Shown here one piece after another: positions 18,333 through 32,090 of a DNA stretch of 64,000 nucleotides. The notes under the pieces were generated by a model. It was not told where the DNA came from. It saw only the letters and a list, made by a program, of their open reading frames with translations, and made no database searches. Numbering within the stretch: the first letter of the stretch is position 1; each line of letters starts with the position of its first letter. A program made the translations under genes and the position numbers. This DNA is from Betaproteobacteria bacterium (GTDB taxonomy: Bacteria > Pseudomonadota > Gammaproteobacteria > Burkholderiales > SG8-39): assembly GCA_016868105.1 (NCBI GenBank), contig VGIA01000001.1, positions 666-64,665 on the forward strand. The letters run 5' to 3'.

Positions 18333-20618
18333 TCAGAAGGTCGACCCGATGGTCAATTGTAACCGTTCAACGCGATCAAAGCCGGTCTTGTCGTTCAGTG
18401 GCTGCGCGATCGAGATTTTGAGTGGTCCTAACGGCGAATTCCAGGCCAGCGCCACACCCGTCGCGTAGCGCAGGTCGGAAATAGAGAACTTCTCGGTCTT
18501 GCCGTAGGTCTGGCCGGCATCCAGGAACGCCGCCAGGCGCATGGTGCGGTCGAGCCCCGCGCCCGGTACCGGGAACAGGACCTCGGCGCCCCCGGAGAGC
18601 TTGCGGGTGCCCCCGAGCACGTTGCGAGACGCGTCCTGGGGGCCGAGTGAGAGCGGCCTGTAGCCGCGCACGCTGCCCGGACCGCCGGCGTAGAAGTTCT
18701 TGAAGAACGGCACCGGCTTGTTGCCAAGGCCGTTGACGTAGCCGAAATCGCCGCCGAGCGCGAAGGTGAAGCTACGGGTGAGCGGATGGAACCACTGCGC
18801 GGCCAGACTGCCCCGGTAGAACTGCAGGTCTCCGCCGGCGAGTTCCAGGCTCGTCCGGGCGGTGTACCCCCGGGTTGGAATCAGTGCGCTGTCCCGCGTA
18901 TCGCCCGCCCAACCGATTGTCGCCGTGGCGTAGCTGTAGTTGTTGCCGAACTGATTGACAAAGTTGATGTACGAAACCGGGCTGCTTGGATTGGTCTCAA
19001 GTTTAACCTTCTCGGCATTGAGACCGAAATTGATCGAGTCCTTTTCTGACAGCGGGTAGCCCAACTTGATGCCGCTGCCCAGCGTGTTGGTGGTGTAGGA
19101 GCCGATCGCCAGGGACGAGGCGTTCGTCTTGCGGTGGTAGGCATCGAAGCCTTGGCTGATGCCATCAACAGTGAAGTAGGGATCGAGGTACGACAGCGCG
19201 TAGATGGCGTTCACTTTCCCGGAGTTCACCTGCGCGGAGATGAACTTGCCGCTGCCGAAGACGTTGGACTGCGACACCGAGCCCGACACCACGACCCTGT
19301 CCACCGAGGAGAAGCCCGCGCCCAGCATAAACGCTCCGGTCGGCTTCTCCTCGACCGTGAAGGACACGTCCACCTGGTCCGGATTCTGCGCCACCGGAAC
19401 GGTCTCGACGTTGACGTCCTTGAAGTACTCGGTGCGGTCGATGCGCGACTTCGAGAGCTGGATCTTCGAGGCATCGTAGTAGGCGCCTTCCAACTGGCGC
19501 ATCTCGCGGCGCACCACCTCGTCCCGGGTCTGGGTGTTGCCGGCGACGTTGATCCGCCGCACGTAGACTCTGCGGCCGGGGTCGATGACGATGGTGAACG
19601 CCACCGTGCGCTTTTCCTTGTCCACCTGCGGCACGGCACTGGCGTTGGCGAAGGCATGGCCCTCGTTGCCCAGCCGGTCGGCGATCGCCTTGGTGCTCTC
19701 GACCAGGCGCTCGCGCGAGAACACCTCGCCCGCCCTGATCTTCACCAGCTTCTCCAGTTCCGGCTTCGGCACCAGCATCTGCCCCGCCAGCTGCACATCG
19801 GAGACGCTGTACTTCTCGCCCTCGCTGATGTTGATCCTGATGTAGATGTCACGCCGATCGGGCGTGATCGAGACCTGAGTGGAATCGACGTTGAAGTCAA
19901 GGTAACCGCGGTTCTGGTAGTGCGAGCGCAGCGTCTCGATGTCGGCGGTAAGCTTCTGGCGCGAATACCGGTCGTGCTTGGTGTACCAGGTGATCCAGCC
20001 CGGCGTGCGCAGCATGAAAAGCTCCAGCAGAGACCTCTCGCTGAAGGCCTGCGCGCCAACGATGTTGATGGAGCGGATCTTCGCCACCCCGCCCTCGGTG
20101 ACCGTGAAGTTGATGCCGACGCGATTGCGCTCGAGTGGAGTCACCGTGGACTGCACTTGCGCCGCGTAAAGGCCGCGGGACAGGTACTGGCGCTTGATTT
20201 CCTGCTGCGCGGTGTCCAGCAGGGAACGGTCGAAGGTGCGGCCTTCCACGAGGCCCAGCTCGCGCAGCACCTTGCGCAGCACTTCGTTATCGAATTCCTT
20301 GAAGCCGGAGAAATCCAGCTGCGCGATCGAGGGTCGCTCCTCGACCAGGACGACGAGGACGTCGTTCTCCACCTCCAGCCGCACGTCGCGGAAGAAGCCG
20401 GTCGCGAACAGGGCGCGCAGCGCCTGCTGCGCCTTTTCCTCGGTCATCAGCTCGCCAACCTTGACCGGCAGGTAGCTGAACACGGTGCCGGGCTCGGTGC
20501 GCTGCAGGCCCTCGACGCGGATGTCCTTGACGGTGAAAGGAAGGAAAGTCTGCGCCACCGCCGCCTGCGCAAGGGCCAGGAGGATGAGCGCGGCGGCGGC
20601 CAGGAACCGAATGCGCAT
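18333..20618 (-). CDS. bamA: outer membrane protein assembly factor BamA
   Basis: MRIRFLAAAALILLALAQAAVA signal peptide, POTRA repeats (FTVKDIRVEGLQRTEPGTVFSYLP...) and a beta-barrel ending ...LQLTIGSTF; 761 aa from ATG 20618. The track ORF extension to 21023 is spurious. Confidence 0.95.
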   Translation of the reverse strand: MRIRFLAAAALILLALAQAAVAQTFLPFTVKDIRVEGLQRTEPGTVFSYLPVKVGELMTEEKAQQALRALFATGFFRDVRLEVENDVLVVLVEERPSIAQLDFSGFKEFDNEVLRKVLRELGLVEGRTFDRSLLDTAQQEIKRQYLSRGLYAAQVQSTVTPLERNRVGINFTVTEGGVAKIRSINIVGAQAFSERSLLELFMLRTPGWITWYTKHDRYSRQKLTADIETLRSHYQNRGYLDFNVDSTQVSITPDRRDIYIRINISEGEKYSVSDVQLAGQMLVPKPELEKLVKIRAGEVFSRERLVESTKAIADRLGNEGHAFANASAVPQVDKEKRTVAFTIVIDPGRRVYVRRINVAGNTQTRDEVVRREMRQLEGAYYDASKIQLSKSRIDRTEYFKDVNVETVPVAQNPDQVDVSFTVEEKPTGAFMLGAGFSSVDRVVVSGSVSQSNVFGSGKFISAQVNSGKVNAIYALSYLDPYFTVDGISQGFDAYHRKTNASSLAIGSYTTNTLGSGIKLGYPLSEKDSINFGLNAEKVKLETNPSSPVSYINFVNQFGNNYSYATATIGWAGDTRDSALIPTRGYTARTSLELAGGDLQFYRGSLAAQWFHPLTRSFTFALGGDFGYVNGLGNKPVPFFKNFYAGGPGSVRGYRPLSLGPQDASRNVLGGTRKLSGGAEVLFPVPGAGLDRTMRLAAFLDAGQTYGKTEKFSISDLRYATGVALAWNSPLGPLKISIAQPLNDKTGFDRVERLQLTIGSTF

Positions 20619-20629
20619 CTGGGATAAAG

Positions 20630-21994
20630 CTATCCGGAGAACAGTCGATTCAGGTCGTTGTAGAAAGCGAATGCCATGATGACCAGCAGCAGTGCCAGAC
20701 CCGCGCGCTGGCCGAGTTCGATGGCACGCTCGGACACGGGGCTTCCCTTCACAAACTCGAGCGCATAATACATCAGGTGTCCGCCATCCAGCAGTGGAAT
20801 CGGCAGCAGATTGAGCACCCCGAGACTGATGCTGATCAGGGCCAGGAACGTCGCGTAGGACAGCCATCCCATCTGCGCCGACTGCCCGGCATAGTCGGCG
20901 ATGGTGACCGGCCCCGAGAGGTGCTTCCAGGACACTTCGCCGAGCAGCATCCGTCCCAGCATTTTCAGGCTGAATACGGATATGTCCCATGTCTTGGCGA
21001 CTGCCCGCGTCAGGCTTTCCCAAGCGCCGTAGGACACCTGGACCAGGACGCGGCTGGCATGCGACGGCGAAAGCAGCGGGCCGGCGCCGATGCGGCCGAT
21101 ACGCTGCCCGCCCTCGTTCACGGCCTCGGGCAGGACCTCCACCGCGCGCACGACGCCCTCGCGCTCCACCTTGATTTTCAACACCCGGTCGGGCCGCTCG
21201 CGCACCAGGCCGACCAGGTCCTCCCAGGCGGCCACCGGCTTGCCCTCGGCCTCCAGCACCCGGTCGTTGCTGCGCAACCCGGCGCGGTCCGCTGCGCCGC
21301 CCGCCACCACGCGTCCCAGCACCGGCTCGAGCGGCGGCCGGTACAGCCGCAGACCGATCCGTTCCATGGCGTCGCTCTCAAACTCCCTCGAGCGAAAGCC
21401 GCGCAGATCGAGCAGCCGGACCGATATGCTGCCGCTGGTGGCGGCGACCTCCAGGCGCAGCACCTCGCGCTGCAGAGCGCCCCGGATCACGCGCCAGCGC
21501 AGTTCCTGCCAGGTGGCGATCGCCTCCCCGTCGACGCTGCGCACGGTGTCCCCGGCGCGCAATCCGGCTTCGAGCGCCACCGTGCCCGCGGCGGGCTCGG
21601 CCGTCACCGGGCGCGCCTCCGGCATGCCGTGCATGTACAAGCCGGCATAGATCAGGATCGCGAACAGGAAATTGAACACCGGCCCGGCGATGACGATGAG
21701 GAAGCGCCGCCCCAAGCTCTGGCGGTTGAAGGAGCGCCCGGCCTCCTGCGGCGCCACCGCGGCATCGCGTTCGTCGAGCATCTTGACGTAGCCGCCAAAC
21801 GGGATCGCCGCCAGCACCCATTCGGTGGCGTCGCGGCCGAAACGCCGCACCAGCAGCGGGCGGCCGAAGCCGACCGAGAAGCGCAGCACCCGCACGTTGC
21901 AAAGGCGCGCGGCGAGGTAGTGGCCGTACTCGTGCACCACGATCAGCACGCCGAGCGCGACCACGAATGCCGCCAGGGTGTTGAGGACGCTCAC
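20630..21994 (-). CDS. rseP: RIP zinc metalloprotease RseP
   Basis: [30 protein letters not shown] (HExxH), PDZ regions and ...[15 protein letters not shown] 21994 forms a GTGA overlap with the dxr stop; 454 aa. Confidence 0.93.
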
Positions 21995-23210: not shown

Positions 23211-24005
23211 TCACGCCGCCGGAAGTTGCCGCAGGAGCAGCGCGCCAAGCGGCAGCGCCGCAGTGACGGCGTCGATCCGGTCAAGGATGCCGCCGTGGCC
23301 CGGCAGGATCCTGCCGCTGTCCTTGGCGCCGGCGGCGCGCTTGACCCCGGATTCGAGCAGGTCGCCGAGCACGCTGGCGGCGCACAGGAAGGCCGCGCCG
23401 AGGAGATAAGGCACCCAGATCGCGCCCTGGACCTGCGCCCGCAGGCTTGGAGCTGACATCGCGCAAATGATAGCGTAAGCAAGGCCTGCCGCTGCGGCGC
23501 CGGCGACACCCTCCCAGGTCTTTCCGGAACTGATCGAGGGCGCCAATTTTCGTCGTCCGCACGCCCGTCCGGTGAAGTAAGCCGCGGTATCTGCGGTCCA
23601 GACCAGGCCCAGCAGGACCAGCAGCTGGTCGCGGGGCAGCGCGACCATCGCCAACCCTGCCGGGACCAGCACCACCAGCCCTGCCAGGGCCGACAGCGCC
23701 GGCGCCGGCGCGCCGGGCCCGCGCGCCAGCCATGCGGGGGCGGCGGCGACCCAGAACACCAGCGCGACAAGCAGGACGCCGTCGAGCAGTCCGGGAAGCT
23801 GCAGCAGGGCGTACCACGCCACCAGGCATGCGGCGGCATAGACCGGCGCGACTGTGGCCGGCCAGCCCGTCAGCCGCGCCCATTCGTAGGCCCCGCTCGC
23901 GATCACTACCGACACCACGATCGCGAATTGGGTGCGCTCGAGAAGGAACAGCGCGGCGAGAAAAGCCGCCAGCAGGACGACGGCAGTGGCGGCCCGGACC
24001 AGCAC
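23211..24005 (-). CDS. cdsA: phosphatidate cytidylyltransferase
   Basis: A multi-pass membrane protein with the C-terminal signature [31 protein letters not shown] start at 24005; 264 aa. Confidence 0.92.
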
Positions 24006-24013
24006 GCGCAGCC

Positions 24014-24235
24014 CTAGGCCCGACGCGCGGCGGGCATCGCTTCGCCCGGAGACGCGGTCCGGGCCGCGTCCAGCTGCTCGCTGGTGCGGCCGAAGCGCCG
24101 TTCGCGGCTGAGGCCGGCGATGCGCGGCAGCTGCCGCTGCCGCGCCCAGCGGCCGTTGCCGCCCATGATGATCGCCACATGCCGCGGCACGTCGCGAATC
24201 TCCGGGATCACCAGCGTGGAACTCGGATGCGACAC
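24014..24235 (-). pseudogene. uppS: undecaprenyl-diphosphate synthase remnant (in-frame fusion of N- and C-terminal ends)
   Basis: The 73-codon ORF sits in the exact uppS slot between frr and cds[27 protein letters not shown] matches the UppS N-terminus, except that the MDGNGRW Asp is Gly. It is followed directly by the C-terminal RERRFG motif. About 175-180 central codons are missing. Confidence 0.7.
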
Positions 24236-24239
24236 ACGC

Positions 24240-24797
24240 CTAGACCGCCATCAGCTCGGCTTCCTTCTGCTTCAGCAGGGCGTCGATCTCCGCGATGTGG
24301 CGATCGGTCAACTTCTGCACCTCGTCCTGCGCGCGCCGCTCGTCGTTCTCGGAGACCTCCTTCTCCTTGAGCGCCTCCTTGAGGGCGCTGTTGGCATCGC
24401 GCCGTAGGTTGCGGATCGCGATGCGCGCGGTTTCCGCCTCCTTGTGCACCACCTTGGCGAGTTCCTTGCGCCGCTCCTCGGTCAGCGAGGGCATCGGCAC
24501 CCGGATGGTGTCTCCAGCCGCAGCCGGGTTGAGGCCGAGGTTGGCATCGCGGATCGCCTTCTCGATCACCGAGCACAGCTTCTTCTCGAATGGGCTGACG
24601 CCGATGGTGCGGCCGTCGATCAGCGTCACCTTGGCCACCTGCTGCAGCGGCGTCGGCGTGCCGTAGTAGTCGATGCTGATGTGGTCCAGCAGCCCGGTGT
24701 GGGCGCGCCCGGTGCGGACCTTGGCCAGGTCCGCCTTGAAGGCCTCGAGGCTCTTCTTCATGCGTGCTTCGGTGTTCTTCTTCAGTTCGGCAATCAT
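24240..24797 (-). CDS. frr: ribosome recycling factor
   Basis: [40 protein letters not shown]...[16 protein letters not shown]; 185 aa. Confidence 0.97.
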
Positions 24798-24828
24798 CGC
24801 AGCCTCCCGATCATCCGTTCTCGGTTCC

Positions 24829-25545
24829 CTAGACGTGCACCAGGGTGCCCTCGTCCTCGCCGGCGACGACGCGGCCGAGCGCGCCCTTCTTGAAGATGCT
24901 AAAGACGTTGACCGGCAGGCGCTGGTCGCGGCACAGCGCGAGCGCGGTGGCGTCCATCACCTTCAGGTGGCGCTGGATCGCCTCGTCGAAGCTGACGCGG
25001 TGGTAGCGCGTGGCGCCCGGGTCCTGCTCCGGGTCGGCAGTGTAGACGCCGTCGACCTTGGTGGCCTTGAGCACGATCTGGGCGCCGACTTCGCTCGCGC
25101 GCAGCGCGGCGGCGGTGTCGGTGGTGAAGAAGGGGTTGCCGGTGCCGGCGGCAAAGATCACCAGCTTGCCCTCCTCAAGGTAGCGGATCGCCTTGCCGCG
25201 GATGTAGGGCTCGACCACCTGCTCGATGTTGAGCGCCGACTGCACGCGGCTGGCGACGCCCGCCTGCCGCATGGCGTCCTGCAGCGCCAACGAGTTCATC
25301 ACCGTCGCCAGCATGCCCATGTAGTCCGCGGTGGCGCGGTCCATCCCGGCGGCGCCGGGCGCGACACCGCGGAAAATGTTGCCGCCGCCGATCACCACCC
25401 CGATCTCGACCCCGGTGCGCGACACCTCAGCGATCTCCTGCACGATCTCGCCGATGGTCTGGCGGCTGATGCCGTAGGCGCCCTCGCCCATCAGGGCCTC
25501 GCCGGACAGCTTGAGCAGGATGCGTTTGTAGCGGGGAGTGGCCAC
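24829..25545 (-). CDS. pyrH: UMP kinase
   Basis: [21 protein letters not shown]...GGGNIFRG...[20 protein letters not shown]; 238 aa. Confidence 0.97.
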
Positions 25546-30810: not shown

Positions 30811-31344
30811 CTACTGCTCCGGCGGCAGTTGCGCGTCGGGGAACAGGGCGTCGTTGAAGCCGAATTTCGACAGCTCCCGGATGCGCATCGGATAGAGGAT
30901 GCCGTCGAGGTGGTCGCATTCGTGCTGCACCACACGGGCATGAAAACCGGAAACGCTGCGCTCGAGGCGCCTGCCCTGGTCGTCCCATCCGGCGTAGCGC
31001 AGGCGCGACCACCGCGGCACCCAGCCGCGCATGCCGGGCACCGAAAGGCAGCCCTCCCAGTCCTCCTCGAGGTCCTGCGTCAGCGGCTGCAGCTGCGGAT
31101 TGATCAGCACCGTGTCGGGCACTTCCTCGGCATCCGGGTAGCGCGCATTGGCCTTGACGCCGAAGATCACCACCCGCAGGCCGACTCCGATCTGCGGCGC
31201 GGCCAGCCCGGCGCCGTTCAGCTGCGCCATGGTGTCGCGCATGTCCTGCAGCAGCGCGGCCAGTTCCGGGGTGCCAAAGCGCTCGACTTCGGATGCGCGT
31301 CGCAGCAGGCGCTCATCGCCCATGCGGAGCACTTCACGGATCAT
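30811..31344 (-). CDS. def: peptide deformylase
   Basis: [11 protein letters not shown]..., EGCLSVPG..., HECDHLDG; 177 aa. Its start forms an ATGA overlap with the mtnP stop. Confidence 0.92.
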
Positions 31345-32090
31345 GACCGGAACGAAGGGCTCGCCAGCGCCTCGATGATGCGCCGCACCCGTCCCATCGC
31401 GTCCTCCAGCACCGCCTCGATGGCCTCCAGCACAATGGCATGCTCGCTGTCGCCGCGGCCCGCGGCGTGGTTCGCCACCACGTTGATCGCCGCGTACGCC
31501 AGCCCGGCCTCGCGCGCGAGCGCAGCCTCCGGCATGCCGGTCATGCCGACAAGATCGGCGCCGTCGCGCTCCAGCCGGTTGATCTCCGCTGCCGTTTCCA
31601 GCCGCGGGCCCTGCGTGGCGGCGTAGACGCCGCCATCGGCGAGGACCTCGCCGCAGGCCTGCGCCGCGGCCAGGATCCGGGCGCGCAGCGGCTGGCTGTA
31701 CGGCTCGGTGAAGTCGACGTGAGTGACCTGCCCGTCCAGCCCCTCGAAGAAGGTCGAGCTGCGGCCGCAGGTGTAGTCGATGATCTGGTCGGGCACCACC
31801 AGCGCGCCAGGTCCGAAACCGCGCCGGATGCCGCCGACGGAGGCCACCGAGATCACCTCGGTAGCGCCCTGGTCCTTCAAGGCCCAGATGTTGGCGCGGT
31901 AATTGATCTTGTGCGGCGCGATGGTGTGGCCGTAACCGTGGCGCGCGATGAACATCAGGTCACGGCCACGGACCCGGCCCATGGTGAGCGCCGTGGACGG
32001 CTCGCCGTAGGGCGTGCGCACGACCCTGCGCCCGGTGGGCTCCAGGCTGGCGAGCTTGGACAGCCCGCTGCCGCCGATGATGGCCAGCAT
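31341..32090 (-). CDS. mtnP: S-methyl-5'-thioadenosine/thioinosine phosphorylase
   Basis: [13 protein letters not shown]...[26 protein letters not shown]...[20 protein letters not shown]; 249 aa from the internal ATG 32090 of track ORF 31341..32690. Confidence 0.9.

Follow-up and report, generated by a model that had tools for sequence, protein, structure and literature searches.

In-frame loss of the catalytic core of uppS in an abundant SG8-39 (Burkholderiales) population of Lake Tanganyika

Undecaprenyl-diphosphate synthase (UppS) is a cis-prenyltransferase (PF01255/TIGR00055; structures 1JP3 and 5CQB) whose activity is indispensable for the synthesis of the carrier of peptidoglycan and O-antigen. 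The enzyme is a target of antibiotics and is regarded as universally essential. In the E. coli structure, the central core of the protein provides the hydrophobic tunnel, the isopentenyl-diphosphate site and the dimer interface. Some bacteria encode more than one member of the family. In M. tuberculosis, the cis-prenyltransferases Rv1086 and Rv2361c (PDB entries 2VG1 and 2VG2) have distinct chain-length roles and are not redundant. They show that a genome can encode several members of the family, a situation that would make the loss of one copy tolerable; however, two paralogues are present there, whereas in the lineage described here a second copy is presumed. The locus described here contains a stub of uppS. 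Its 41 N-terminal residues and its RERRFG motif with the following tail align with UppS, and it shares the frr-uppS-cdsA slot. Unlike members of the UppS family, it lacks 192 of 265 codons, has D26 replaced by Gly and H43 by Leu (E. coli numbering), and scores far under the family cut-offs.

The stretch of DNA that was analyzed, called the window below, has a length of 64 kb (64,000 nt). It belongs to the metagenome-assembled genome (MAG) VGIA00000000, Betaproteobacteriales bacterium K_DeepCast_65m_m2_129, from Lake Tanganyika (PMC8245535). This MAG was placed in the GTDB family SG8-39 and, by its 16S, in Nitrosomonadaceae MND1; it has a completeness of 98.46%, a contamination of 1.66% and a GC content of 69%, and it comprises 190 contigs with a total of 2.51 Mb (PMC8245535). 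The CdsA protein of the window is NCBI entry MBM3351657.1, which is encoded on a 68,749-bp contig. Reads mapped to the MAG accounted for 2.3–3.1% at depths from 50 m to 120 m and for 0.35–0.74% in deeper water (PMC8245535). The high fraction at 50–120 m indicates that the lineage with the stub is viable and thriving and is among the more abundant organisms of the lake.

In the window, frr (stop codon TAG at 24242–24240) and cdsA (start codon GTG at 24005) are separated by 234 bp, as stated in the original prediction, and this interval contains a single ORF, the uppS remnant (Table 1). The strand, start, stop, length and amino acid sequence that had been proposed for it are all correct. The remnant starts with the native GTG, 4 nt past the stop codon of frr, and ends with the native TAG, 8 nt ahead of the GTG of cdsA. 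The same spacings are found on a contig with an intact uppS, L091 (frr 1018–1575, uppS 1580–2377, cdsA from 2386 onward). The stub occupies the conserved betaproteobacterial uppS slot between frr and cdsA, and a Pfam search found frr, cdsA, dxr and pyrH all to be complete.

Table 1. Coordinates of the uppS remnant, of its parts and of the two neighbouring genes in the window.
Feature	Position	Strand	Description
uppS remnant ORF	24014..24235	-	73 codons, GTG 24235 to TAG 24014
Codons 1-41 (UppS residues 1-41)	24113..24235	-	first beta-strand and IIM(D)GNGRW diphosphate-binding motif
Codon 25, GGC (Gly)	24161..24163	-	replaces catalytic Asp (GAC), E. coli D26; alignment to relatives
Codon 42, CTC (Leu)	24110..24112	-	CAC (His) in all intact relatives, E. 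coli H43; directly 5' of the junction
Codon 43, AGC (Ser), hybrid junction codon	24107..24109	-	A from K43 (AAG), GC from G235 (GGC)
Codons 44-73 and stop (UppS residues 236-265)	24014..24106	-	RERRFG motif and variable C-terminal tail
frr (ribosome recycling factor)	24240..24797	-	intact upstream neighbour; PF01765, E 6.9e-65
cdsA	23211..24005	-	intact downstream neighbour; dxr, rseP and bamA come next on this strand; PF01148, E 5.8e-49

That the frame is open is uninformative as such, because about 20% of random 73-codon frames with this composition would contain no stop; what carries information is the homology of both ends and not the ORF itself. The gene calls on the corresponding JGI and ENA contigs (L001–L010) begin at start codons within the stub and yield proteins of 65 aa or 58 aa that are not assigned to a family, and the exact 73-aa sequence was absent from the protein collection searched, NCBI entries included. 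Automated annotation and marker-based metabolic reconstruction of MAGs should thus be treated with caution, as the loss of uppS goes unflagged and the stub is called a hypothetical protein of 58–65 aa. Scans of the region 23500–24900 revealed no Rfam family and no promoter-like site. Three terminator-like matches were found in this region, all of them inside the coding regions of frr and cdsA, and these are most likely due to chance. Elsewhere in the window, an ORF of 265 aa is present downstream of glnD (30829–31626, plus strand); its GC3 of 0.80 is coding-like, and it has no Pfam match at E <= 1e-5.

Tests against the family models gave no full-length, above-cut-off match of the stub to PF01255 or TIGR00055. 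PF01255 matched residues 23–43 only, that is, profile positions 1–21 of 219, with 17.3 bits versus a cut-off of 27, and the NCBIfam model TIGR00055 matched over profile positions 1–27 of 228 only, with 32.8 bits versus a cut-off of 109.55. An intact relative, P0064, is matched by TIGR00055 over positions 1–228 with 272.6 bits. The catalytic Asp of the IIMDGNGRW motif is absent from the stub of the window (Gly), in agreement with the original prediction; the relatives have GAC at this codon. Also absent are the conserved His that follows the first helix turn (Leu in the stub) and the central core, approximately residues 44–236 of the E. coli protein, which was lost with 576 bp that correspond to codons 43–235 of the 265-aa relative. 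The stub was aligned with 5cqb and 1jp3, structures of E. coli UppS, to obtain the E. coli residue numbers. The C-terminal R-x-G motif is retained, and residues 44–49 of the remnant, RERRFG, are the same as residues 236–241 of P0064. It had been proposed that the first 41 or so residues are a UppS N-terminus, directly followed by RERRFG; indeed, both termini are homologous to those of intact P0064, encoded on L091. Judging from the loss of the core, the product of the stub would be expected to have no enzymatic activity.

To place the remnant among its relatives, one genome per GTDB species was scanned with the Frr protein of the window, which resulted in 80 loci with Frr identities of 66–96%, nearly all from MAGs of Burkholderiales/Betaproteobacteria. 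A UppS match follows frr in all 80 of the 80 species representatives, and the distance between frr and cdsA ranges from 784 bp to 1153 bp wherever the locus includes cdsA. When the UppS of L011, the closest GTDB relative, was used as the query, two proteins of 265 aa were found, P0064 and P0065, the first 41 and the last 30 residues of which are almost identical to the stub. Their genes are located between frr and cdsA on the contigs L091 and L092, which have nucleotide identities of 95.3–96.6% to the window on both sides. Compared with L091, codons 1–41 of the remnant differ at 5 of 123 nt and in two amino acids, and the C-terminal part differs at 10 of 87 nt. Contigs of this intact type are L091, L092, L173–L179 and L180 (NCBI VGHW01000568.1); all have lengths of at most 5 kb and the gene order pyrH-frr-uppS-cdsA-dxr-rseP.

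The intact uppS genes of this sister lineage (P0064, P0065 and P0174; contigs L091, L092 and L173–L180) share the operon and the spacings with the window, with nucleotide identities of 95–96% in the flanks and at both ends of the gene. Unlike the stub, they have the full length of 265 aa, the high TIGR00055 score given above for P0064, and they are under purifying selection. For the comparison of L091 with L188, a contig of a third lineage with an intact uppS, the pN/pS of uppS was 0.16, indicating purifying selection in the intact lineages. In these comparisons, the sister-lineage gene was used as the ancestral template of the deletion. The uppS of L188 (ENA assembly ERZ27247963) has an in-frame deletion of 39 bp in the C-terminal tail (positions 1090–1130) and encodes 252 aa instead of 265 aa; the GC-rich tail of uppS seems to be prone to indels. 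The same ENA assembly contains a deletion-type contig, L007, in addition to the intact L188.

The comparison with the intact genes defined the lesion to the nucleotide. In BLAST alignments with L091 and L092, the left homology arm extends to position 24103 of the window and the right arm begins at position 24108. Versus L091, a single segment is missing, nt 1707–2282, that is, 576 bp or 192 codons, and the loss is in frame. The missing segment begins at position 2 of codon K43 (AAG) and ends at position 1 of codon G235 (GGC), and the comparison with L091, L092 and L188 positions the junction between 24109 and 24108. The original prediction had proposed an in-frame junction at about 24104–24115 and the loss of 175–180 codons. 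The frame was right and the place can now be given exactly, but the extent had been underestimated, as the stub lacks 192 codons when compared with the closest intact gene and 187 when compared with L011. The only further difference near the junction is the change of CAC to CTC (His42 to Leu, 24112–24110). At both breakpoints, L188 as a third intact relative agrees with the other two, and the junction is therefore blunt; microhomology was looked for against L091, L092 and L188, and none was found. The alignment to the closest relatives that had been recommended for defining the endpoints thus resulted in one 576-bp deletion without microhomology. A near-repeat, CGCGGC, was considered as a junction microhomology and rejected, because it would predict a different product.

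The Frr protein of the window is found with the same sequence on 17 contigs. Ten contigs with an Frr identical to that of the window (L001–L010) have nucleotide identities of 99.0–99.8% to the window, and in all of the eight with a located cdsA, 234 bp separate this gene from frr. One of the ten, L006, stops just inside cdsA, yet it has the identical junction, and L009 alone ends ahead of the junction. The deletion, with the endpoints given above, is fixed in this lineage, and the features that define the UppS family are lost. Homology to a functional gene is found at a syntenic site in close relatives, and indispensable parts of the gene are missing. In kind, the locus is a case of ordinary gene decay, a gene remnant (pseudogene) that was generated by deletion. 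A decaying relic was one of the two alternatives that had been offered for this locus, and it fits the data, with both termini kept, the catalytic core lost in frame, and the catalytic Asp replaced.

The most plausible history begins with one in-frame deletion of 576 bp in the progenitor of a single SG8-39 (Burkholderiales) population of Lake Tanganyika, which would have removed the whole catalytic core. The remnant would then have drifted, with the catalytic Asp changed to Gly in one branch and to Glu in another, and with His42 changed to Leu. Ribosomes should still be able to proceed from frr via the stub to cdsA at the original spacings of 4 nt and 8 nt. As the native start codon, frame and stop codon are retained, the deletion is probably non-polar for the essential genes cdsA, dxr, rseP and bamA. 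This may explain why an in-frame allele became fixed where a frameshifting allele might not have been. In these respects, the locus is similar to engineered in-frame (non-polar) deletions in operons, in which start, frame, stop and native intercistronic spacings are likewise kept; unlike those, the deletion in the window is natural, and its presumed non-polarity follows from the arrangement of the genes. Undecaprenyl diphosphate would be produced by another cis-prenyltransferase, encoded outside of the 64-kb window. Taken as a whole, the explanation that uppS is a dead remnant and that its function is provided by a different cis-prenyltransferase is, in our view, likely to be correct.

A second cis-prenyltransferase is thus probably encoded elsewhere in the genome. 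A tblastn search of the 64-kb window with E. coli UppS retrieved the stub and no other cis-prenyltransferase. The small size of the genome (2.5 Mb) makes a spare uppS less expected. A metagenome scan with P0064 returned, among the matches listed, UppS proteins with at most 70% identity only, and none of these was from Lake Tanganyika; the matches listed were mostly retrieved via generic motifs (IMDGNGRW, FAFSSENW), and the scan is uninformative with respect to a relocated copy. The protein MBM3356064.1 was considered as a second UppS of the window's MAG and rejected, because it belongs to another MAG, VGHW01. A literature search for documented cases of natural uppS loss retrieved nothing usable.

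Alternatively, the lineage might have no cis-prenyltransferase at all and might obtain its polyprenyl carrier via a non-homologous or unrecognized enzyme or by scavenging. This would be compatible with a dead canonical gene in a thriving population that has a small, 98.5% complete genome and with the lack of a replacement within 64 kb. However, the search covered the window, about 3% of the genome, and second paralogues of the family are well documented, for example those of M. tuberculosis (2vg1, 2vg2). We know of no wall-bearing bacterium that lacks a cis-prenyltransferase, and we regard this alternative as unlikely. If the family were indeed absent, an abundant, free-living, wall-bearing betaproteobacterium would use an unrecognized route to polyprenyl phosphate. 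The canonical uppS has been lost cleanly, and the loss is fixed in a dominant natural population, whereas a sister with 4–5% divergence has kept the gene; the pair therefore represents a sharply defined natural experiment. Its outcome would be either a replacement cis-prenyltransferase with a traceable origin and timing or, much less likely, an unknown route to the lipid carrier.

The possibility that the stub peptide is under selection as a 73-aa micro-protein with a new role was assessed by analyzing its evolution after the deletion. The ORF is open in nine of the nine deletion-type contigs that span the whole stub, with the native start and stop codons kept, as would be expected for a functional peptide; however, a frame of this length would be open by chance in about one fifth of cases, as calculated above. 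The pN/pS values of the remnant versus the sister lineage are also below 1, with 0.24 for the N-terminal part and 0.45 for the C-terminal tail, compared with 0.27 for cdsA, all based on small site counts; the remnant does not clearly exceed cdsA in this measure. Most of this divergence probably predates the deletion, which would be fairly recent. Within the deletion clade the pattern was different. Between L007 and the window, 7 of the 222 positions of the remnant differ, versus 24 differences in 2743 positions outside of it (Fisher p = 0.007, odds ratio 3.7), and frr has no differences. Four of the codon changes in the remnant are non-synonymous and two are synonymous; the former are Ile to Val, Arg to Gln, and two radical exchanges, Val to Glu and, at the codon that once encoded Asp, Gly versus Glu. 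These changes are suggestive of relaxed constraint in the remnant, a signal that is confined to the young deletion clade and to few sites. Moreover, AlphaFold2 modelled the stub with low confidence (pLDDT 58.6, pTM 0.22), although a single-sequence run such as this is weak evidence, and a database search for a comparable mini-UppS outside of the window's lineage found none. A selected micro-protein is thus distinctly improbable, and we retain the interpretation of the stub as a dead remnant.

The codon of the catalytic Asp is GAC in L009, L091, L092 and L188, GGC in the window and in eight JGI contigs, and GAG (Glu) in L007. As L009 and the intact relatives share GAC, the codon must have been hit twice independently. 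The probability that two independent changes affect the same codon of a 73-codon stub by chance is about 8%, and the double hit is most likely the result of drift. The contig L009 (Logan SRR16108668), which has kept GAC, is the only contig with the exact PyrH of the window. It ends at position 24146 of the window, 37 nt before the base at the junction is reached, and its uppS fragment would be compatible with an intact as well as with a deleted allele.

A merodiploid genome was also considered, in which the intact sister-type contigs (L091, L092 and L173–L179) would represent a second copy of pyrH-frr-uppS-cdsA-dxr-rseP, 95–96% identical to the first, in the same genome. The two types occur together in at least five samples, and the shortness of all intact-type contigs would also be compatible with this explanation. 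However, the intact-type contigs were binned to separate MAGs, for example VGHW01, and all genes on them are intact, under purifying selection, and uniformly 4–5% diverged. VGHW is the MAG K_Offshore_40m_m2_212, the longest contig of which has 11.9 kb (PMC8245535). In the published tree, K_Offshore_40m_m2_212 and K_DeepCast_35m_m2_259 together form the sister clade of the window's MAG (PMC8245535). The ratio of reads mapped to K_DeepCast_35m_m2_259 and to the window's MAG is 0.41–0.61 at depths of at least 50 m and 1.0–1.84 at depths of at most 40 m (PMC8245535). Such a depth dependence fits two populations with different depth preferences and argues against the presence of both copies in one genome. 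The low contamination of the window's MAG also speaks against merodiploidy. Therefore, we consider it very unlikely that the intact gene resides in the same genome as the stub, and the preferred explanation remains that a different cis-prenyltransferase has taken over.

The second alternative that had been offered in the original prediction, a collapsed assembly, was not borne out. The 24 Lake Tanganyika metagenomes had been assembled separately with metaSPAdes (Tran et al., ISME J 2021, PMC8245535). The contigs L001–L006, L008 and L010 represent eight of these 24 samples, and all of them have the identical junction. The same junction is present in L007, which stems from the ENA assembly ERZ27247963 with k141 (MEGAHIT-style) contig names. 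Thus, although the window is part of a bin from a short-read metagenome and most junction-bearing contigs stem from one project and one pipeline, an assembly or binning artefact, in which the assembler skipped 576 bp of a full uppS in the real genome, is hardly credible, because the junction was recovered in eight separate assemblies and in the MEGAHIT-style one, the contigs that bear it differ by strain-level SNPs, it lacks any repeat or microhomology at which a de Bruijn graph could have collapsed, and L007 has the same deletion together with additional substitutions.

The contigs also allowed a view of the structure of the populations. At the uppS locus, the deletion lineage is represented by contigs of 20–69 kb, whereas the contigs of the sister lineage never exceed 5 kb, even though the sister receives, at depth, about half the number of reads that map to the deletion lineage. 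The contrast suggests that a deletion population of low diversity, possibly recently swept, exists beside a microdiverse sister population. The SNPs among the 99.0–99.8% identical strains are clustered, with tracts at positions 24970–25257 of the window (pyrH), 19800–20283 (bamA, in L001) and 21691–21849 (rseP, in L003 and L004). In the pyrH tract, three to nine differences set the window and L009 apart from the JGI deletion-type contigs and L007, with nine differences in L001, L002, L004, L005, L008 and L010. These SNP tracts look like imports from diverged relatives via homologous recombination.
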